Shown in pieces: positions 11,847-62,096 of a stretch of DNA of 64,000 bases; positions within the stretch are counted from its first letter, which is position 1; each line of letters begins with the position of its first letter. A program made the position numbers and the translations under genes. This DNA comes from Bdellovibrionales bacterium. GTDB taxonomy: Bacteria; Bdellovibrionota; Bdellovibrionia; Bdellovibrionales; UBA1609. The stretch is taken from NCBI GenBank assembly GCA_965203095.1, contig OZ241877.1:768001-832000 (forward strand), in the 5' to 3' direction. The notes under the pieces were generated by a model. It did not search any database and was not told the origin of the DNA. It worked only from the letters and a program-made list of their open reading frames with translations.

Positions 11847-11925
11847 AAACTGCCCCTTCTTCATTTTGTATATCATTAAATTTTGAGACAGGCCAACTGT
11901 ATATTTAGTTGCCTGTAAAAAAGCT

Positions 11926-11984
11926 CTCACCGCTGGGCCCTCCTTTACCTATGCGATAAAGGGACAAAGGTTTTTTACGGGGGA
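11926..11984 (+). repeat. Partial (right-arm) copy of hairpin family B
   Basis: CTCACCGCTGG...ATGCGATAAAGGGACA...TTTTTACG matches 60850-60897. Confidence 0.65.
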
Positions 11985-12740
11985 CTATCTAATGGGAGGG
12001 CTATGATGGCATTGGTTTTCCTCACTATAAGTCCAACCCATTTGGCCAGCTCCCGACTCAGAAGTATAATGTTCTATCAAATAAGATTTGCTGGGTAGCT
12101 CTATCTCTCCATTCCAAGAACTCAAAACAATTTCTTGTTCCCCCTTTAGCCGGACAATGCGAATTTCATGCCCTTCTGGATGATAAGGGAGATAGGCATC
12201 CACATGGCGATAATCTAAAATCCCATCCTCAGGTTTTATTTTCCAAGATTCTGGAGCCCAAGGTTCCTCAGCATCTAAGAGCCATGGTTTTTCAGCATAT
12301 TCCCTCGCTATATAAGCCTCAGAGTATCTTCCCTCCTCATCGTAATTCTCTGGAGAATCCAACCTTAAAAAATCTTCTGCCAACAAATTGCCATTTTTAT
12401 CATAAAGCCTAATCCTTAAATCCTCCCTATAAATAGCTTTCTTATTTTTTTCCTTATTATAACAATAAGATCTGCCGGAAAAATTAAACTTCTCATCTCC
12501 ATAGTCTAAGTAGTGAGGATATTTTTTCTCAAAAATCTCACCTTCCTTGAGGTCTCTACCTTCAATCATTTGTTGTTTTAGCTTCTCTAATCTTCTCGGA
12601 TCTTCAGGCCAATACCAACCATAAGTAATGATCTCCTCTAAGTCCTTCTTAGGAAAATCAGGCAGTTGTTTTTTCCTCAAACAACTGCATGAAAAAAGCA
12701 AAATCGCAAACAAAACACTATAAAGAAAACTTTTTGGCAT
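11985..12740 (-). CDS. Hypothetical lipoprotein
   Basis: Signal peptide with lipobox-like LFSC; GGAGG RBS upstream. Confidence 0.7.
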   Translation of the reverse strand: MPKSFLYSVLFAILLFSCSCLRKKQLPDFPKKDLEEIITYGWYWPEDPRRLEKLKQQMIEGRDLKEGEIFEKKYPHYLDYGDEKFNFSGRSYCYNKEKNKKAIYREDLRIRLYDKNGNLLAEDFLRLDSPENYDEEGRYSEAYIAREYAEKPWLLDAEEPWAPESWKIKPEDGILDYRHVDAYLPYHPEGHEIRIVRLKGEQEIVLSSWNGEIELPSKSYLIEHYTSESGAGQMGWTYSEENQCHHSPPIR

Positions 12741-48736: not shown

Positions 48737-49705
48737 ATGAGTTTTCTTATTCGTCCAGCAGATTTTCAAGATAAAGAAGATCTTTTGGAGTTATCTCATT
48801 TTTTCCCACTTTGCAGTTTGCCTAAAAACTCTCTTAAGCTTAAAAAAAAGCTGGAGGTGAGCCAAGAGTCTTTCAAAGGGATCCGGCCTAAAGAGGAAAG
48901 AAATTATATTTTCGTCTTAGAAGATCAAAAGGCAAAAAAAGTCATCGGCTCCAGTCAAATTTTATCTTATTTTGGCCCTCATCAGTCCTTATGTTATTTT
49001 CTTAAAACATACAAAAAAAATATTTTTTTAGAATTGAAAAAGATCTCTACAGGGCAAAATCAAATAGGGGGCTTGATTGTGCATCCTGCATATCGCAAAA
49101 AGCCCTCCCTGTTAGGCTTGCAAATTGGTCTAACTCGTTTTTTATATATAAAAAGTTTTCCAAAAGATTTTTCTTCTCTTATAGAAGTGAGCCTCACTGC
49201 TCCTTTTACTGGATCAAAAAATGAATTTTGGAAAGAAACGGGGCAAAAGCAGTTAAAAATAAGCTATTCTTCTGCTTTAAAAAAGCTCCAAACGGATCGC
49301 CTTTCTTTTTATTCTCTTTTTCCAAAAAAATTAAAAATTCCTTTATCCCAGCTGAGTGAAAAAGCTCAAAATTGCCTTCAGGAAGTTCATCCGCAAACCT
49401 ATCCTGCCTTAACTGGTCTTTTAAAAAGAGGGTTTCAAGCAAGTTCTCGTCGTCACATACTGGACGGAGGGATTTATTTAGAAGCTTTTTGGAGGGATCT
49501 GCCCTTTCTTAAAAAAGCCAAAAGTCTTTTTTTAAAAAAAGACAAAAAAATAAAAGGTTCTGCCTTTCTTTTATCACAAAACAGCCCACAGGGTTTTAAC
49601 TGTCAAAAAGTTTTAGGCCAGCTGAGTGGAAACCGGTTTTTAATTCAAGCTATTCCCAGGGTTTTTTCCGATAAAAAAAAGGTTTTGGCATTAAAATTCC
49701 CTTGA
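48737..49705 (+). CDS. astA: Arginine N-succinyltransferase (AstA family)
   Basis: IRP, SLP, YIFVLED, GGL..HPAYR, FW, VH..T.PA, DGG. Confidence 0.75.
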   Translation: MSFLIRPADFQDKEDLLELSHFFPLCSLPKNSLKLKKKLEVSQESFKGIRPKEERNYIFVLEDQKAKKVIGSSQILSYFGPHQSLCYFLKTYKKNIFLELKKISTGQNQIGGLIVHPAYRKKPSLLGLQIGLTRFLYIKSFPKDFSSLIEVSLTAPFTGSKNEFWKETGQKQLKISYSSALKKLQTDRLSFYSLFPKKLKIPLSQLSEKAQNCLQEVHPQTYPALTGLLKRGFQASSRRHILDGGIYLEAFWRDLPFLKKAKSLFLKKDKKIKGSAFLLSQNSPQGFNCQKVLGQLSGNRFLIQAIPRVFSDKKKVLALKFP

Positions 49706-49902
49706 AAACGGGAATCCAGGAGTCTCAATCTTTTCCACAAAAATTTATTGAAAAACCTTATTCCCTAGCTTTTTCTCCAAAGGCCGTTCCATTTCGGGAC
49801 GGCAATACCTTGGACCCTCATGAAACGGCCTTTGGACAAAAACAGTTGAAAAGGTTAAAAAATGATTCTGTCAGCGAAATACTGAACATTTACAGGAATG
49901 AC
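49696..49902 (+). repeat. Composite element: dRS3-like palindrome + spacer + family B hairpin (49771-49841) + GGAATGAC end
   Basis: Matches 61125-61195 and 61304-61406; overlaps the astA stop codon. Confidence 0.88.
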
Positions 49903-49907
49903 TCAGC

Positions 49908-50291
49908 CTAAACAGCTTTCTCTTTTTTCCACCTTGTTTTAAACATGTTTTGTAAAACATAAAAAAGTAAAAAAGTTAAAATGGAACTCAAACCTATCAA
50001 AAAGGCTTTGCCATCAAGAAACCATAAAACAGCGATCAAAACAACAAGCAAACTCAACCATTTAAGAGAGAGGATAAGGAAAGCTAAGGCTCGTCTTTTT
50101 TTCTTAAAAAGCAAGGAGGCCGAGTAAAAAAACAAAAGCATATAAAAATTAGCAAAAACAAATCCAGTAAAAAAAGCTATCCGGCTCAAACCAAAAAAAT
50201 AAACCAAAATGAACAAGAGCAAACCATAAAGAACTTGAAAGGCAAAACCTTTTAAGCCTAACGGAAATGTCTGTAAAAATTTAAAAACCAT
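49908..50291 (-). CDS. atpI: ATP synthase protein I-like 4-TM membrane protein
   Basis: Four hydrophobic helices, G...AN and LK motifs; follows an AtpZ-like gene. Confidence 0.6.
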   Translation of the reverse strand: MVFKFLQTFPLGLKGFAFQVLYGLLLFILVYFFGLSRIAFFTGFVFANFYMLLFFYSASLLFKKKRRALAFLILSLKWLSLLVVLIAVLWFLDGKAFLIGLSSILTFLLFYVLQNMFKTRWKKEKAV

Positions 50292-50428
50292 AAGATATAA
50301 GCCAGAATGAGACAAAAAATTGTGGCCCAGCCCCCCATTAAAAATTTGTTATCTAAAAATCGACCTAAAAAAAATCCAATTGCAATAAAAGATAAAAGCT
50401 CCGAGCTGACAATAAAAAGCTTTTTCAC
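50258..50428 (-). CDS. AtpZ/AtpI (ATPase gene 1) family small membrane protein, absent from the ORF track
   Basis: Manual translation MKKLFIVSSELLSFIAIGFFLGRFLDNKFLMGGWATIFCLILAYILWFLNFYRHFR; G..LD..F motif. Confidence 0.7.
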   Translation of the reverse strand: MKKLFIVSSELLSFIAIGFFLGRFLDNKFLMGGWATIFCLILAYILWFLNFYRHFR

Positions 50429-50432
50429 AATC

Positions 50433-51194
50433 TCAAAACCCCGGCTGATGGCTCCGTCTTTCCATAAGGCGGTTAATCTTTCCCCTAATAAAAGGGTTGG
50501 AGGGGTGGATCTTCTCTAACTCCTTTATAGCAGACGAAAAATCTTTTTGGGACTCATAAATAAAAGCCAAATACTCTCTTAAAAAAGCTGATTCTTCGGG
50601 AAATTGCTCTATTTGCCTCTCAAAAAGCTCTTTTGCTAAATCAAATCGCCCTTCTGCCATCAGGCTCCGGCCCTTTAAGTTGAGTGCCTGTTTTCTTTTT
50701 TCCTGGGAGATTCCATCAAAAAAACATTTGTCTGCCTCTCTTAAAGCCTGTGAATATTTTTTTAAATAAAAAAAACTCTCCGCTATATGATATTGAACAA
50801 AAAACCTTTCCTCTGTCCCTAAAACTTGCCGGGACAAGTCAGTATAATGTTTTAAAGCCTTTTCATAATCTTTAATTTTATAAAAAGAAAGATCGGCCAA
50901 CTGCCTCTGCCATTTTTTAGAGGAAGGCGAAGGGTTCCGCTCAATTTTTAAAAGCTTTTCTAAAATAAAAATCGCCTTTTTTGTTTTTTCCTTTTTTATG
51001 CAAGCCTCTGCCCCACGAGTCAGACGAGAGGTCAGACGAGCTTTTTTCCTATAATGGAGTTGAGGCTGATGGGCCAATTTATAAGCCCTTTCACAACCGG
51101 ACCATGCCTTTAAAAAAGCTATGCCCTGGCCCCAACCCCAAGCTTCTATGGGCAAAGCAGATAAAGACATAAAAAATAAAGAGAGGATTCTCAT
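50433..51194 (-). CDS. TPR-repeat protein
   Basis: Helical TPR-like repeats; signal-like N-terminus. Confidence 0.75.
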   Translation of the reverse strand: MRILSLFFMSLSALPIEAWGWGQGIAFLKAWSGCERAYKLAHQPQLHYRKKARLTSRLTRGAEACIKKEKTKKAIFILEKLLKIERNPSPSSKKWQRQLADLSFYKIKDYEKALKHYTDLSRQVLGTEERFFVQYHIAESFFYLKKYSQALREADKCFFDGISQEKRKQALNLKGRSLMAEGRFDLAKELFERQIEQFPEESAFLREYLAFIYESQKDFSSAIKELEKIHPSNPFIRGKINRLMERRSHQPGF

Positions 51195-51221
51195 CTCATA
51201 GATGTTTGGCTTTTAACTCTT

Positions 51222-56164
<4,943 letters not shown>

Positions 56165-56226
56165 TTATTATCTCATTTTTTTATCTAAAAAGAAAGCCCT
56201 TTATAGATTATTTCACGGGCAAGTAT

Positions 56227-57726
56227 TTATGGGGGAAAGGGGCTTCTCAGCTCTTTTAAAAAGCAAAAACAGGCCAAAGCAATAAGCAGTAAAAGAGGGA
56301 AAGCTGAGACAATAAGTAAGAGTTCAAGAGCTTTTATCCCACCGAGATAGAGCAGAGCTATGGCCAGCAATCCCTCTAAAGAGGCCCAATAGAGCTTGCC
56401 CCACAGGGGGAATCTCCCTTTTCGGGAGGAAATTTGATGAATAACATAAGAGGCCGAATCGGAAGATGTGACGAAAAAAACAACAATAGCCAAAAGAGCC
56501 GTTATACATAAGGTTTTTGAAAAGGGGAAATGCTTTAAAAACTCAAACAACAAAAGGGAATACTCTGTTTTTAAAAGAGGCTGAAGGTTCATTTCCCCGG
56601 TGAGATGATATTCAATAGCCGAACCGCCAAAAACAGCAAACCAAAAACAAGAAAGTCCGGCAGGGGCCAATAGGCTGGCCAACACAATTTGCCGGACACT
56701 TCGCCCTTTAGAAATACGAGCAATAAACAGCCCTGTAAAAGGGGTCCAAGCCACCCACCAGGCCAAATAGAGCAATGTCCATTGGGATCGCCACTCGACA
56801 GAACCTAAAGAGTTAACTCGAGTCATATTTTTGATCAGATCCAGTAAATAATGCATAGAATGCTCCACAAAGGAGCTGAGCACAAAAACTGTAGGGCCAG
56901 CGGAAAAGACAAATAAAAGTAAAAACAAGCAGATCAAAAGGTTCAATTCACTCAAACGGCGAATCCCCTTGTTCAGCCCAGAAATTAAAGATAAGGCTGA
57001 GCCTACAGTGATAGCAAAAATGATCAGGGTTTGAGTTGTTGAAGAATAAGAGATCCCCCATAACTCCTTAAGGCCGGAATTGATTTGCATACTTCCACGC
57101 CCTAAGGTGACCGCCATACCAATCAAAATCACCACTACCGATACAATATCAATAAGAGATTTTAAAAAACCAGCTGATCTTCCTTTTAAAAAAGGAGAAA
57201 ATATAGAGGATATTTTTAAAGATTTTCCTCTGCAAAAAGAGAAATAGGCCATAATGATCCCTGTCAGGGTATAAATAGCCCAGCCAGAAAATCCCCAATG
57301 AAGAAAAGTGAGTTGAAAGGCCTGAGGCAGTGGCTCTACCCCCGTGGTAGGCCCTGAAGGAGGGTAAAAATAATGATACAGTGGCTCATAAACGCCGGAG
57401 AACAAAAGCCCGGTGCCCATGCCTGCACTAAAAATCATGGCTATCCATGTTCCATTATTGTATTTTGGGGGGCCGGCCCCCATTTTCAGCCGGCCATAAG
57501 GGCTAAGGGCCAGGTAAATACAAAGGCAGAAAAATAAAAAAAATAAAAAAACATAAAACCAAGAAGTATAGAGGATAAAAACATTTTGCCCTCTCGACAA
57601 AACATTGAAAAAACCATTAGGAAATAAAAAAGCCAGTGCTAAAATAAAAAAAATGAGACCACCAGCCCCTATAAAAACAGGATTGCCATTTTTTTTAAAG
57701 AGGATGGGTAGGAGTTGATTTTTCAT
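56227..57726 (-). CDS. BCCT family transporter
   Basis: MIFSAGMG, HWG, WW.AWTPF.G.FIARISKGR. Confidence 0.92.
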   Translation of the reverse strand: MKNQLLPILFKKNGNPVFIGAGGLIFFILALAFLFPNGFFNVLSRGQNVFILYTSWFYVFLFFLFFCLCIYLALSPYGRLKMGAGPPKYNNGTWIAMIFSAGMGTGLLFSGVYEPLYHYFYPPSGPTTGVEPLPQAFQLTFLHWGFSGWAIYTLTGIIMAYFSFCRGKSLKISSIFSPFLKGRSAGFLKSLIDIVSVVVILIGMAVTLGRGSMQINSGLKELWGISYSSTTQTLIIFAITVGSALSLISGLNKGIRRLSELNLLICLFLLLFVFSAGPTVFVLSSFVEHSMHYLLDLIKNMTRVNSLGSVEWRSQWTLLYLAWWVAWTPFTGLFIARISKGRSVRQIVLASLLAPAGLSCFWFAVFGGSAIEYHLTGEMNLQPLLKTEYSLLLFEFLKHFPFSKTLCITALLAIVVFFVTSSDSASYVIHQISSRKGRFPLWGKLYWASLEGLLAIALLYLGGIKALELLLIVSAFPLLLLIALACFCFLKELRSPFPP

Positions 57727-57757
57727 AAAAGTTTCCCCTGAGATAAAAAGACTATTC

Positions 57758-58348
57758 CTACACCCCCATAGAACACAATACTTCCTTAACCTGCCTTTTG
57801 AGGCTTTGCAAGTGGCCACTGTTGTCAATAATGAAGTCCGCATGGCCCTGAGCTTGGGATTCGGGAATTTGTGCCCTCCATCTCTGTTTAATTTCTATAG
57901 AGGTCCAGCCTTTTTTTATCAACCTTTGTCTTTTGATACTTTTAGGACAGACAAGCAAAATTTTTTTGTCAAAAGAATCAAACATTTTTAAAGATATGAG
58001 AGGGGCTTCATAAAAAACCCAGCTTTCCCCAGAGTTTTTTTGATGATCCCGCCATTTTTTAAAAGACTCCCTGATCAAAGGGTAAATAATGGCGGAAAGG
58101 GCCTTTCGCTTATCTGCATTTTGGAAAATATCCTTTGCCAGCTGTTTTCTATCCCACTCGCCATTAGATTTAAAAAATCGATCCTCATTAAAAATCTGCT
58201 TTAAACGGGAATAACAGGGGCTTTTAATGCTCATAAGCTCTCTCGCCTTTGTGTCCGCTTTAAAAACAGGGTAGGATTGAGCCTCTAAACAAGCAATTAC
58301 AGTGCTTTTCCCCGATCCCATAGAACCCGTCACTAAAACCGTTGTCAT
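57758..58348 (-). CDS. coaE: Dephospho-CoA kinase
   Basis: TGSMGSGKST, DRKQLA..IF, ADFIIDN. Confidence 0.93.
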   Translation of the reverse strand: MTTVLVTGSMGSGKSTVIACLEAQSYPVFKADTKARELMSIKSPCYSRLKQIFNEDRFFKSNGEWDRKQLAKDIFQNADKRKALSAIIYPLIRESFKKWRDHQKNSGESWVFYEAPLISLKMFDSFDKKILLVCPKSIKRQRLIKKGWTSIEIKQRWRAQIPESQAQGHADFIIDNSGHLQSLKRQVKEVLCSMGV

Positions 58349-58457
58349 ATTGTTGATGAGAATACTGGTAGTTAAAGGATTTTTTTAGTCCCAAACCAAT
58401 GAAAAAGCCTTTAAAGGCTATTTTTTTCAAAAAAAAGGCTCACTCACAGGCAAACTT

Positions 58458-58485
58458 TAAAGTCTATAGCCAAAAAAGCCGATAA
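58458..58485 (+). promoter_or_regulatory. Sigma28 (FliA)-like promoter TAAAGTCT-N12-GCCGATAA
   Basis: Exact -10 consensus GCCGATAA; spacing 1 nt longer than canonical. Confidence 0.5.
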
Positions 58486-58494
58486 TTTTATTAG

Positions 58495-60441
58495 ATGAAA
58501 TTTACAGAATTTGGAAAATACACCATCATTAAGAAACTGGCCTCTGGGGGCATGGCTGACATTTTGTTGGCCTGTGATTTAAGCCCCGCGGGTTTTGGCC
58601 GATTTGTGGTCATTAAACGAGCTTTGTCAAAGTTTTCTGAAAATGAAGAATTTAAGGACATGTTCAAAAATGAGGGGAAGGTGGCCAATAGCCTCAAACA
58701 CAGCAACATTACCCCCATTTATGAATTTGGGATCCAAAAAGACCAATTTTTTCTCTGTATGGAATATATTTCCGGAAGAAATGTCCGAGAGCTTATTAAA
58801 AAATTACAACTTTACAAAAGCTCTATCAGTATTCCCAACGCGGTTTACATTATTAAAGAGGTGGCCTCTGGTTTGAATTACGCCCACAATGCAGTGGATC
58901 CCAACACGGGACGACCTTTAAACCTTATCCATAGGGACATCAGCCCCCAAAATATCATGTTGAGCTTTGACGGAGAGGTAAAACTTATTGACTTTGGAAT
59001 TGCCAAAATAGCCGACACCAATTTGACTCGAGTAGGCCATCTGAAGGGAAAGTTCAGCTACATGAGTCCAGAGCAGGCCAAGGGCGAACCATTGGACGCT
59101 CGGACAGATATTTTCTGCATGGGGATCATTTTGTGGGAGCTCTTGACTGGCAAAAGGCTTTTTGCTTCGTCAAATGACCTCAACTCTTTAAAAAAAGTTA
59201 AAGTTTGCGATGTTCCTTCAGCACAAAAAATCAATCCGGAGATCCCTACCGCACTCAATCATGTGATTCAAAAGGCTTTAAGCAAAAATAAAAATTCAAG
59301 ATACAAATCGGCCGCAAATATGGAGCAAGATCTGACAGTATTTTTAAATAAAAACTATCCAGAATATTCTCGCTATGAGTTTATTTCCCTAATAAAAAAA
59401 GTTTATCGAAAAGAAATAATGAAAGAGCGGGAAGACTTGAAAACCTATTCCTCTAAATTTAACATATATAAAAATGAACGAAACAAAGAAGAGGGCTTAA
59501 GCCCACAAACACAACACTTGAGTATTCCCGATATATCTATATTAGACCCGGCCCCTAAAGCACCAACAGAAACAAAAAGTTGGTTAAATGAAGAAGAGAA
59601 CAGGTCTTACAACAGCCAGTTTATCACACAAACCAAAAAGACGAAATCATTTACAAACAGTCAAGAAAAAGAGGAGAATAGTTCCACCTTAATCCAAAGG
59701 CAAGACTTCAAAACAGAGACTTCAGCAAATGACCAGACATTGAGTCGCTCATTGACTGATGAGACTCGTCAGCCCCAACTTGTTGCAAAAAATAATGACT
59801 CGATCCAGTTGAAAATGGAAAGCCAATACAAAATGGCTAAAACTCAAAGTCCTCCTTTTAATCAGGGGACTTTAAACACTGATCTGTCTTTTAAAAAAGC
59901 CACAGCTCTTTACGATAAGAAAAAATTTATAGAACAAATTGCAGAAAACAAGGATGAAAACCAAACCTCTTTGTTTTTTTTGATTATGGCGAGTGTTTTA
60001 TTTTTAGGGGGTGGTTCTTTTGCTATTTTTTGGTTGATAAAAAATGACAATGTGATGGAATGGTTAGGGGCAGGAGGCGGAACATCCCCTCCCTCTGTTC
60101 AGCAAGGTTTGCCTAAATCCATTCCGGCCCCGCATTCTGCTGAAAAGGCTTTTGCTAATAAGCAGATAACTAACCCACCGGCTCAGAGAAAAATATTTAT
60201 CAACTCCAAACCCTCAGGTGCGGCCATTTTTGTAAATGGTCAATTTTTGTCTAAATATACCCCTTCTGTAGTCAGTTTGAGTGCCAAAAGCATATCACAT
60301 ATCACTATTAAAAAAGAGGGCTACTTCCCTAAAAAAACTGTATTTAATCCACAAAATCAAAGCCAAAGCTCTTTAAGTGTCAGTTTAAGAGCTGATCCTC
60401 AAAGGGATCTCTCTTCGGAAAAAACCTATATTAGACAATAA
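58495..60441 (+). CDS. Hanks-type Ser/Thr protein kinase with TM and C-terminal PEGA domain
   Basis: GGMA, HRDISPQN, DFG, YMSPEQ; NSKPSGAAIFVNG..TP..KEGY. Confidence 0.95.
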   Translation: MKFTEFGKYTIIKKLASGGMADILLACDLSPAGFGRFVVIKRALSKFSENEEFKDMFKNEGKVANSLKHSNITPIYEFGIQKDQFFLCMEYISGRNVRELIKKLQLYKSSISIPNAVYIIKEVASGLNYAHNAVDPNTGRPLNLIHRDISPQNIMLSFDGEVKLIDFGIAKIADTNLTRVGHLKGKFSYMSPEQAKGEPLDARTDIFCMGIILWELLTGKRLFASSNDLNSLKKVKVCDVPSAQKINPEIPTALNHVIQKALSKNKNSRYKSAANMEQDLTVFLNKNYPEYSRYEFISLIKKVYRKEIMKEREDLKTYSSKFNIYKNERNKEEGLSPQTQHLSIPDISILDPAPKAPTETKSWLNEEENRSYNSQFITQTKKTKSFTNSQEKEENSSTLIQRQDFKTETSANDQTLSRSLTDETRQPQLVAKNNDSIQLKMESQYKMAKTQSPPFNQGTLNTDLSFKKATALYDKKKFIEQIAENKDENQTSLFFLIMASVLFLGGGSFAIFWLIKNDNVMEWLGAGGGTSPPSVQQGLPKSIPAPHSAEKAFANKQITNPPAQRKIFINSKPSGAAIFVNGQFLSKYTPSVVSLSAKSISHITIKKEGYFPKKTVFNPQNQSQSSLSVSLRADPQRDLSSEKTYIRQ

Positions 60442-60767
60442 TGAGGGACATAATGTTTTTTTTGAGAAAAAAGCCCAGCACCTCCTCTCAAAATAAAGGC
60501 TTAAAAAGAGCTTTTTTAAAAAGTCGTTCCGGACAGGTCACAGTGGAGTATATCCTTTTAGGAGCTGTTTTGGCCTTCCTATTTAAATTGGTGACAACTT
60601 CTAACCCGTTAAAAGACTCATTACAAAATTTTCAAGAGACACCTTATAAAGTATTTAATAATTTGTTGGAGACCGGAAACTTAATCTCTGATGGACCAAC
60701 TGGACCAACCGCCACAGAACAGCATCCCAATAATCATAAATTGCATTACACTTCTGATGGAGAATAA
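60441..60767 (+). CDS. Flp/Tad pilin-like protein, translationally coupled to the kinase
   Basis: SG|QVTVEYILL; TAATG overlap. Confidence 0.8.
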   Translation: MRDIMFFLRKKPSTSSQNKGLKRAFLKSRSGQVTVEYILLGAVLAFLFKLVTTSNPLKDSLQNFQETPYKVFNNLLETGNLISDGPTGPTATEQHPNNHKLHYTSDGE

Positions 60768-60776
60768 ATATCGCTT

Positions 60777-62096
60777 ATGAAAAAGTCTACATTTAATAGA
60801 TCGCATAAGCAAAAGTCCAGCTTGTTCGGGACGGCAATACCTTGGACCCTCACCGCTGGCTTTTGCTCATGCGATAAAGGACAGATCTTTTTTACGAAAG
60901 GATTAAGAGTCGCCTATGAAAAGCCTTGTTCTTTAATTTCTTTATCCAAAGGCCCTGCCCTTTCGGGCTCCCGCCAAGTCTTTACCCAAAATCCCGTCAT
61001 TCCCGCCTTGAGCGGGAATCCATTCCTCTCAGACCCTCACCATTCGTTATTCCCGCTTAGCTTTTCGGATTGCCCCCGGCAATTCTCAATCCCACGAAAG
61101 CGGGAATCCATATTTAGTTTATCTTTTTGTCCAAAGTCCGTTCCATTTCGGGACGGGAATACCTTGGACCCTCATGGAACGGACTTTGGACAAAAGCACT
61201 TAAGCAAGCTCTTCCCAGGATTAGTCTTTCCAAAAAAGCCAGTTGCTCCCGTGAAGAACCTTTTCGGCTTGCCCCCGGCAAGTCTCAATCCCGTGAAAAA
61301 CTTCGTCATTCCCGTGAAAACGGGAATCCAGAAATCTCTATCTTTCCTGCAAAATTTATTAAAAAGTCTCAGGTCTTTTCGGATTCCTGCTCAAGGAAGG
61401 AATGACTATTCTTGTCGTGGGAAAATACCTTCCCGGGAAAAAGGTTTTGTGACGATTCCTTTTCTTTTGGTTTCAATTATTATTTTATTTTTGATTCTCT
61501 CTTTTTTTAGGCTCACTTTCACTTTGGTTCATGCCAGTGTGGCTCAGTATATCGCCTATTCCACCTCCCGAAAACTGGCTTTGGGAGGGAAAAATAAGAA
61601 TGGGTTTATTAAGGCAGATGGCCATTATGTCAAACTCCATAAAAAGTTTTTTAATAATGCTTTTAAAGCTAATAGTAGTGATTGTAGTGAGGGAGGGCTT
61701 GATATGTTTACAATCTGCTCTACTAAAGACGGTCTTATTGGAAAAGGAGACTCGATAGGAAAAAAGAGTGAACGTGAGCGTGATTATAAAAGTAATCATC
61801 CTAATAAAACTTTATTTTATGGGGTAGGAGTTCTTTTTGATTATAATAAGGCACTGAGATTTAAAATCCCTTTCTTATCGAAAAACTCAAACATCTCGCC
61901 ACCGGAATATGCCATTATCAATTCTTTTTTAGGACGAGAGATTTCTCAAGATGAGTGTGATGATTATAGTAATAGTTTTTTCAAACAAAGGAATACATTT
62001 ATCTATAGTATGATAAAGGAAAATAGAAATTCACAAATTCTTGATGGCTTTGAAGCTAATAAGATAAAAATAAATGGAGGTGACAATGGCTGTTAA
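60777..62096 (+). CDS. TadE-like pseudopilin with a ~220-aa repeat-derived N-terminal leader
   Basis: EKG|FVTIPFLL..TM..AQYIAYSTSR; lies between two pilin-like genes. Confidence 0.7.
   Translation: MKKSTFNRSHKQKSSLFGTAIPWTLTAGFCSCDKGQIFFTKGLRVAYEKPCSLISLSKGPALSGSRQVFTQNPVIPALSGNPFLSDPHHSLFPLSFSDCPRQFSIPRKRESIFSLSFCPKSVPFRDGNTLDPHGTDFGQKHLSKLFPGLVFPKKPVAPVKNLFGLPPASLNPVKNFVIPVKTGIQKSLSFLQNLLKSLRSFRIPAQGRNDYSCRGKIPSREKGFVTIPFLLVSIIILFLILSFFRLTFTLVHASVAQYIAYSTSRKLALGGKNKNGFIKADGHYVKLHKKFFNNAFKANSSDCSEGGLDMFTICSTKDGLIGKGDSIGKKSERERDYKSNHPNKTLFYGVGVLFDYNKALRFKIPFLSKNSNISPPEYAIINSFLGREISQDECDDYSNSFFKQRNTFIYSMIKENRNSQILDGFEANKIKINGGDNGC
60800..61406 (+). repeat. Cluster of palindromic elements: family B hairpins (60800-60875, 61125-61195), dRS3/CGTC-like copies (60995, 61088, 61304, 61381 inverted) and a 32-bp direct repeat (61062, 61261)
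   Basis: Read directly; matches to 1673, 11926, 12771, 19296, 43190, 49696. Confidence 0.92.

Follow-up and report, generated by a model that had tools for sequence, protein, structure and literature searches.

The window analysed here, a stretch of 64,000 nucleotides from a Bdellovibrionales bacterium (assembly GCA_965203095.1, contig OZ241877.1, positions 768,001 to 832,000 of the forward strand), contains three hairpins that share a fixed 28-nucleotide motif (28-mer) and differ in their stems. We find that they belong to a large repeat family. Terminal inverted repeats, target duplications, ends shared with transposase-bearing elements and alignment to the right end of an insertion sequence (IS) together identify most of its copies as miniature transposable elements with inverted repeats (MITEs) derived from IS5. 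The carrier is thus an ordinary kind of element, and the novel part is a strand-specific fold under selection, common to the IS end, the MITEs and the repeats without ends. As to the mechanism, we lean somewhat towards IS5 transposition in trans, combined with the use of the fixed core as a protein-read site on folded single-stranded DNA (ssDNA).

The 28-mer lies on the forward strand at 49793, 60825 and 61147 without mismatches (0 of 100 shuffled sequences contain a match), each time within a stem of 21-23 bp, as the first-pass annotation of the window had reported. All three hairpins are far more stable than their shuffled versions, with z-scores from -4.5 to -9.2 for RNA and from -3.9 to -9.5 for DNA. 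In the whole genome (G000; 1.80 Mb, 38% GC) there are 49 exact and 81 near-exact (at most 2 mismatches) copies of the 28-mer, and the 3′ 17-mer of the core occurs 121-122 times versus 2 for the reversed control. The copies lie outside open reading frames (ORFs) of at least 100 amino acids in 110 of 122 cases, in a genome that is 87% coding.

Many copies are bounded by a 15-bp inverted repeat with the consensus GTCGYCCGTGAAAAA. At an end-score threshold of 7.4, set from the reversed genome, both repeats are present in 56 of the 122 copies, one in 26 and none in 40, so that 82 copies have at least one end. The elements (54 with a length) measure 130-201 bp and fall mainly into classes of 133-134, 153-154 and 187-189 bp; a helical periodicity of these lengths is weak and vanishes once distinct lengths are used. 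Perfect 6-7-bp target duplications flank 23 of the 56 two-ended elements, against a mean of 4.5 and a maximum of 12 in 2000 permutations, and are also found in the relatives G229 (33 of 61) and G244 (1 of 7). The end motif matches 123 times in this genome, 230 times in G229, 136 times in G206 and 87 times in G224, and is also present in G244, G005 and G017. When compared with the bacterial MITE definition of PMC3733652, the elements are short and non-coding, have terminal inverted repeats and a target duplication, and share their ends with an autonomous IS, which is found in relatives.

IS5-family transposases were reached by following the end motif through these relatives. The same ends bound full-length NF033578 (transpos_IS5_1) elements in G206 and G244, where the transposase at locus L247 scores 467.6 bits against a cut-off of 275, and an annotated IS5 on the Leptospira plasmid NZ_CP039260 has them as well. 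All seven full-length G017 copies that were read have clean 6-7-bp duplications of the TANN(N)TA type. In one type of this IS (type B or IS5-B; 6 copies in G206 and 1 internally deleted copy in G229) a hairpin follows the last codons of the transposase, about 25 bp from the right end and with the stop codon inside its 5′ arm, and the 28-mer is the antisense of the core of this hairpin. A BLAST search with the IS picks up, through the last 140 bases of the element, repeats of G229 (E 3e-25; 80% over 137 nt), of G244 and of this genome (E 1.6e-5). In alignments, MITE flanks correspond to IS5-B on both sides of the hairpin. The window copies themselves align to the IS5-B right end with scores of 85 (60800 copy), 61 (61125 copy) and 70.5 (49771 copy), where the shuffle maxima are 46, 42 and 44.5, respectively.

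Immediately 5′ of the hairpin lie bases that are similar to the C-terminal codons of G017's hairpin-less element and are met again in the MITEs, from which we infer the direction from IS to MITE; one G229 MITE copy retains the last codons of the transposase. Since type A, G017 and the plasmid relatives of the IS have no hairpin, it is a lineage-specific gain in type B. We are confident that the end-bearing copies derive from IS5, and the ends, the 6-7-bp duplications and the match to the right end make it likely that the elements were copied here by an IS5 transposase in trans. Where the first-pass annotation had looked to a co-occurring HUH or GIY-YIG gene as the partner, the partner traced is an IS5-family DDE transposase instead. 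This genome appears to have lost the donor transposase. The IS630 (8 copies) and IS1634 (4 copies) elements that it does carry were considered as movers and rejected, their ends being different from the MITE ends; the IS1634 copies at 173889-178550 and 1224243-1232868 of its contig C1 lie between direct duplications, which are 1371 bp and 3350 bp long.

On the transposase-sense strand, the core and its surroundings fold into an outer stem P1 (~20 bp), a small internal loop, 1-2 pairs, tandem GA/GA, a 3-bp helix P2, a TCCAA/GT internal loop and a tip hairpin P3. The 28-nt loop that had been described as conserved is indeed fixed in sequence, but 27 nt are unpaired in the copies at 49771 and 61125, where the last A takes part in pairing, and 33 nt in that at 60800, and the loop is itself a fold on the minus strand. 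Stem arms of different copies are 52-54% identical and cores 93-100%, the core figure being inflated by how the copies were found. Together with the compensated double changes, of which one between the 49771 and 61125 stems had already been noticed, this supports the earlier proposal of a non-autonomous mobile family selected for structure. The arrangement of fixed loop and free stem also holds as the reverse of that of the NTS/dRS3 repeats, in which the stem is read and the identity of the loop is dispensable, according to PMC11893778.

Further copies covary in G229, both in P2 and in the stems. In a hand tally of the 100 G229 matches listed, out of 157, P2 is GGG/CCC in 47, GTG/CAC in 20, GAG/CTC in 15 and AGG/CCT in 14 and not fully Watson-Crick in 4; hence it is fully Watson-Crick in 96, 49 of which have one of three double changes. 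Each of these variants does not belong to one outer stem: in DNA of G229 they are combined with several. Double changes are seen at 14 of 19 pairs in 27 class II sequences, where 98.6% of cells pair; these rows were pre-selected for a paired outer stem, their kinship inflates the covariation count and the statistics are not tree-aware. In the newly found genomes the 2-bp step covaries further and P3 ranges from 2 to ~13 bp, with TCCAA, GT and the 3′ GA retained. The tip is a mini-hairpin, with the sequence GCGNAGC in 7 of the 8 units read in G026 and GCGNNAGC in G206's intact IS. The position directly behind the TCCAAG of the core is where other hairpins insert, also in the window at 60909-61041.

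Known motifs with similar parts do not fit. A kink-turn has a 3-nt bulge 5′ of the tandem GA, and a hammerhead is a CUGANGA three-way junction; the family shows tandem GA/GA but a two-way junction, with no such bulge and no CUGANGA junction. A terminator is rejected because A-runs rather than T-runs follow the class I stem on either strand, and SECIS and rolling-circle nick motifs find no support.

The pattern of changes points to selection on pairing in one strand. Where a stem has an isolated mismatch, the sense strand shows G-T in 26 cases and A-C in 9 (unique contexts, p=0.006). A near-identical sibling exists for 67 of 93 well-paired and 2 of 28 poorly paired copies in this genome, and for 48 of 67 and 0 of 4 in G229. 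Between nearest siblings, compensated double changes and one-arm changes number 20 vs 15 in G229 and 11 vs 38 in this genome. Arm-to-arm repair could contribute to the compensated changes; neither it nor copy age explains the survival of the unpaired core. Loss of mismatch repair was rejected as a cause, MutS being present in 5 of 5 genomes checked.

We propose the following mechanism. Step 1: the hairpin would start from IS5 sub-lineage B (G206, with fragments in G229), in which it lies across the stop codon ~25 bp inside the right end. Step 2: internal deletion would have produced the 133-190-bp MITEs, which keep both ends and the hairpin. Step 3: a DDE transposase, since lost here, would have spread the MITEs into TANN(N)TA sites, often next to each other's ends. 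Step 4: the transposase-sense strand of each copy can fold into the free-sequence P1, GA/GA, the covarying P2, the fixed TCCAA/GT and the variable P3. Step 5: P1, P2 and P3 would need pairing alone, and the unpaired parts would need base identity, as does the protein-read bulge of the E. coli REPs; new stems may arise via G-T intermediates and arm-to-arm repair, and copies losing pairing would cease to multiply. Step 6: older copies, including those of the window, would have lost their ends and been absorbed into the NTS/dRS3 mosaics in which they now lie. The first candidates for the putative reader of the core are the IS5-B transposase, an ssDNA nuclease or a HUH enzyme; the searches of this genome found no core-reading protein.

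If a DDE transposase does read the core, this would be an IS5 that uses a folded single strand; if the core is dispensable, the family is an ordinary set of IS5 MITEs whose hairpin is unusually well preserved. The 'fixed loop, free stem' repeat now has a traceable origin, with donor IS, deletion derivatives, decayed copies and end-less relatives all known, and with all these stages in hand the question of whether a DDE transposase or another enzyme reads the folded ssDNA becomes directly testable.

A number of observations weigh against this mechanism. Profile and protein searches with NF033578 and IS5-B give no match in this genome, and no empty site was found among paralogues or in the contigs of four runs, where contigs break at repeats. 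The sole intact IS5 of G244 lacks the hairpin, and hairpin-less IS5 relatives (G017, type A) are active or intact, which means that the hairpin is dispensable for IS5 transposition in general. The genomes G202, G196 and G026 have 31, 22 and 5 core matches with only 0, 2 and 0 IS5 ends and no match to the IS5-B protein, so IS5 is not the sole vehicle. P2 shows hardly any covariation in this genome, where it is broken in a worn subtype, and each P2 variant may have arisen once and then been shuffled. Neither this genome nor G229 or G244 has the mini-hairpin tip, the excess of G-T over A-C is weak in this genome alone (11 vs 7), and the sibling test is confounded with copy age. A replichore bias of 70 vs 52, calculated with an unreliable origin, gives no support for lagging-strand exposure. 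Finally, there is no covariation between the ends of an element (276 against an expected 270.6 here; 301 against 284.5, maximum 308, in G229), which leaves a fold of the whole element unsupported.

The copies without ends bear on a broader alternative, which we regard as possible but doubtful: the core could be an undescribed ssDNA recognition structure that gives its carrier a copying advantage and has moved among the IS5 right end, MITEs, NTS mosaics and stand-alone repeats, its reader being a DDE transposase or an ssDNA enzyme that also splices hairpins at TCCAAG. In the relatives, hairpins stand beside NTS repeats in 11 of 13 cases in G196 and 2 of 14 in G202, and contig C5 of G196 has six tandem hairpin + NTS units, 235-260 bp apart, at 105179-106478, upstream of a gene that is presumably an aspartokinase. 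The nesting in dRS3-like units that the first-pass annotation described applies in this genome to the end-less copies, 21 of 40 of which are within 200 bp of an NTS half-site, but not to the intact ones (4 of 56, with 4.3% for random sites). The copies of the window are of the worn kind: none of the three has an intact IS5-type end, those at 49771 and 61125 abut NTS repeats, and all of them have lost intact ends and now sit in dRS3/NTS mosaics. A fourth, split copy at ~60942-61041 has a dRS3/NTS repeat inside its loop, so the nesting between hairpin and NTS runs both ways. The family shares its mosaic arrays and mutual nesting with the NTS/dRS3/SRM repeats and their Ssn GIY-YIG enzyme (PMC11893778). 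It does not belong to them, as its sequence differs from the ATTCCC-N8-GGGAAT stem and no Ssn-like gene that could serve as their short GIY-YIG gene was found in this genome.

It seems unlikely to us that the hairpin itself is a REP-like replicator that has a HUH or GIY-YIG enzyme of its own to move it on ssDNA and was merely captured by IS5-B and the MITEs, in which case the IS5 link would not explain its spread. Such a replicator would account for the stand-alone copies in G202, G196 and G026, including the six-unit array, and for the hairpins inserted just after TCCAAG. It also has a precedent in the E. coli REPs of group 2, which TnpA-REP (RAYT) reads as folded ssDNA, recognising them by a bulge in the stem (PMC8266576). 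Like these REPs and BIMEs, the family has an imperfect hairpin with a conserved in-stem mismatch and forms mosaic arrays with other repeats; unlike them, it has a much longer stem of ~20 bp, a multi-part core and inverted ends with target duplication, and no Y1/RAYT gene accompanies it in this genome. Inspection of the flanks revealed no GTAG or CGTC tetranucleotide at the stem foot, which speaks against REP membership. Moreover, IS5 ends and duplications accompany most of the young copies here and in G229, IS5-B matches the flanks on either side of the hairpin, and among the 55 copies that lack an intact right end, 21 still show the inner remnant of it (7.4% at random).

The enzymes that such a replicator calls for are likewise missing where they were sought. 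Y1 (PF01797) is absent from G000, G229 and G202 (G196 and G026 were not searched), and none of the IS200-like matches in G244, G206, G224 and G002 is flanked by the hairpin motif. No Ssn-like gene was found in G000, where tblastn with the Ssn-like protein of G224 gave no match. The three GIY-YIG matches of G000 are a UvrC-like protein and two proteins of 263-270 amino acids. An IS91-type search gave no match in this genome, though its positive control was also silent, and reverse transcriptases were not searched. No gene type recurs between close pairs of copies. The two GIY-YIG genes of 263-270 amino acids lie at 374250-379711 of C1, beside a DNA-methylase-like gene and a large restriction-modification-like gene (labels by reading). 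The same contig has an expanded Rpn/YhgA-like family with 15 tblastn matches (e.g. at 65471, 1437219 and 1679105), several of them near a MITE end and one stem arm.

That the fold works as RNA we consider improbable. It would then be a 3′ structure of the IS5-B transposase message, acting in stability, as an RNase III site or in protein binding, and later kept in read-through MITE transcripts. The overlap of the fold with the stop codon on the transposase-sense strand fits this, and GTAA, the tip in G206, is also compatible with a GNRA loop. RNA often contains tandem GA pairs and mismatches of the G-U-compatible kind. The stability of mRNA is reportedly influenced by MITE transcripts (PMC3733652). 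On the other hand, in gaps whose two genes run the same way the folded strand shows no excess in the host-gene direction (25 with vs 21 against) and is under-represented in the fetched DNA of five relatives (14 vs 34, by crude gene calls), selection acts on copies without a gene, and Rfam has no match. The GNA triloop tips also favour DNA: GCGNAGC and GCGNNAGC, exactly the P3 tips of G026 and the intact G206 IS, are extraordinarily stable mini-hairpins as DNA and far less so as RNA (PMC13037366), although this genome, G229 and G244 have another tip and G196 and G202 a long stem. The evidence thus favours, but does not prove, a folded ssDNA over a role in host mRNA.

Least probable is a functionless hairpin, a neutral rider in an IS5 MITE whose arms are kept complementary by template switching or fold-back repair and whose core is kept uniform by gene conversion: many single-pair double changes between siblings do agree with copying from arm to arm, there are chimeras whose crossovers lie in the core, and hairpin-less IS5 elements and MITEs with other cargo occur, but such copying would erase the GA/GA and TCCAA/GT mismatches, which persist in 7 genomes while P1b, P2 and P3 (2 to ~13 bp) change in pairs, and the strand-specific G-T excess is not predicted; MutS is present in the genomes checked.

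Compared with IS5-derived MITEs in general, the preferred reading of IS5 transposition with a protein-read core leaves the usual features in place, i.e. 70-300 bp, no coding capacity, 15-bp inverted ends in common with an IS that bears a transposase, a duplicated target and a mostly intergenic position. What differs here is the strand-specific covarying fold in the interior, with fast stem turnover around a fixed unpaired core, as well as the presence of the fold without IS ends in three relatives and the absence of the donor from this genome.

The family has a narrow distribution. A covariance model built from class II rows (52 candidates scored per genome) finds it in 7 of the 109 genomes of the taxonomic family, namely this genome and 6 of the 15 of genus g18; the 9 other genomes of the same genus are all negative. 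Rfam at gathering score has 0 matches in the window and elsewhere only sub-threshold generic hairpin matches, in line with an undescribed motif as earlier suggested, and no description of the hairpin family was found in the open-access full-text literature. The 21-nt core has 0 matches in the genome contig collection. A 17-mer scan of genome contigs gives at least 75 loci; among the matches listed, 56 come from two Bdellovibrionales records and 19 others have no hairpin. Another 14 metagenome and 15 viral motif matches show no family hairpin and were discarded as chance. Viruses and plasmids have nothing for the sense motif or the IS right end. The IS5-B protein matches no viral locus and has just 2 distant matches among 401 genomes of the phylum.

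In the window, the covariance model scores the three copies on the minus strand at 47.3 (49771), 65.5 (60800) and 51.2 bits (61125). The first, a class I module at 49770-49842, has a 23-bp outer stem P1 (49770-49792/49820-49842) including 2 mismatches, one of which is a T-G wobble on the minus strand, around a structured core of 27 nt. An inner remnant of the IS5-type right inverted repeat is found at 49749-49757, at a MITE-like distance from the hairpin, where no intact end is scored. The adjoining dRS3/NTS hairpin, with the motif as given in PMC11893778, is at 49696-49715.

The other copies belong to a repeat array of ~670 bp (60768-61440) between a pilin-like and a TadE-like gene, labels that come from reading the sequences, as neither gene has a Pfam or NCBIfam match. 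In same-genus genomes the gap between these genes is ~10-75 bp (all 6 loci examined, in as many other species, chosen among 9 genomes that have the gene). The array begins with a decayed MITE of 134 bp (60770-60903, minus strand), the length of the 133-134-bp class, with worn inverted repeats at 60770-60784 and 60889-60903 (right end 6.2 and left end 0.8 against the threshold). It holds the class II module at 60800-60875 (minus strand), in which P1 (60800-60821/60855-60875; 1 bulge and 1 mismatch) is followed by a G/AA loop, 2 bp, GA/GA, the GGG/CCC helix P2, the TCCAA/GT loop and the tip hairpin P3. A second, tandem element at 60909-61041 (minus strand), read directly and missed by the covariance model in its search of the window, has a left-type inverted repeat (60909-60923), a single stem arm and a core split by an NTS insert (60995-61021), the halves of P2 surviving on either side. 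The class I module at 61125-61195 (minus strand) has a perfect 22-bp stem (61125-61146/61174-61195), its outer ends replaced by NTS-type repeats, and a further NTS/dRS3 repeat of the same mosaic lies at 61304-61331. An ORF of 439 codons (60777-62096, plus strand) runs for ~220 codons through the array into the TadE-like gene. The same-genus orthologues of this gene are open frames of 197-254 amino acids with a short native start, which is missing here; the ORF is either a repeat-encoded N-terminal extension or a gene with a lost start.

Elsewhere in the window, 11906-11987 is an 82-bp remnant bounded by inverted repeats and holding just a worn stem arm. It is in the interior of this remnant, at 11926-11984, that the right arm of the 60800 stem had been thought to recur; its two ends match and nothing else does. 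The MITE end of this remnant provides the stop codon of the ORF at 11985-12740 (minus strand), and two paralogues of this ORF (C1 ~267,900 and ~868,900) have the same end in the same place with a different interior, a pattern that suggests cargo exchange between repeats.

Ends and cargo also vary elsewhere. In G229 MITEs, positions 3-10 of the inverted repeat are highly variable (33-37 distinct 8-mers in 61 elements), whereas there is almost no variation among the copies read in G017. In G224 and G206 (L156-L163), the same IS5 ends bound MITEs with a different cargo, namely NTS hairpins and a short covarying hairpin, and the left 75 bp of IS5-B are matched by many repeats of G224. On C1 of this genome, single host genes are enclosed by facing IS5-type ends at 248801-249494 and 1674213-1674912, like small composite transposons; one of these genes we take to be YraN-like. 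The second contig, C2 (17,191 bp), consists of a 1109-bp unit repeated in tandem. Its first 2.5 kb contain no ORF of 80 amino acids, it does not match C1, and it is possibly from another organism.

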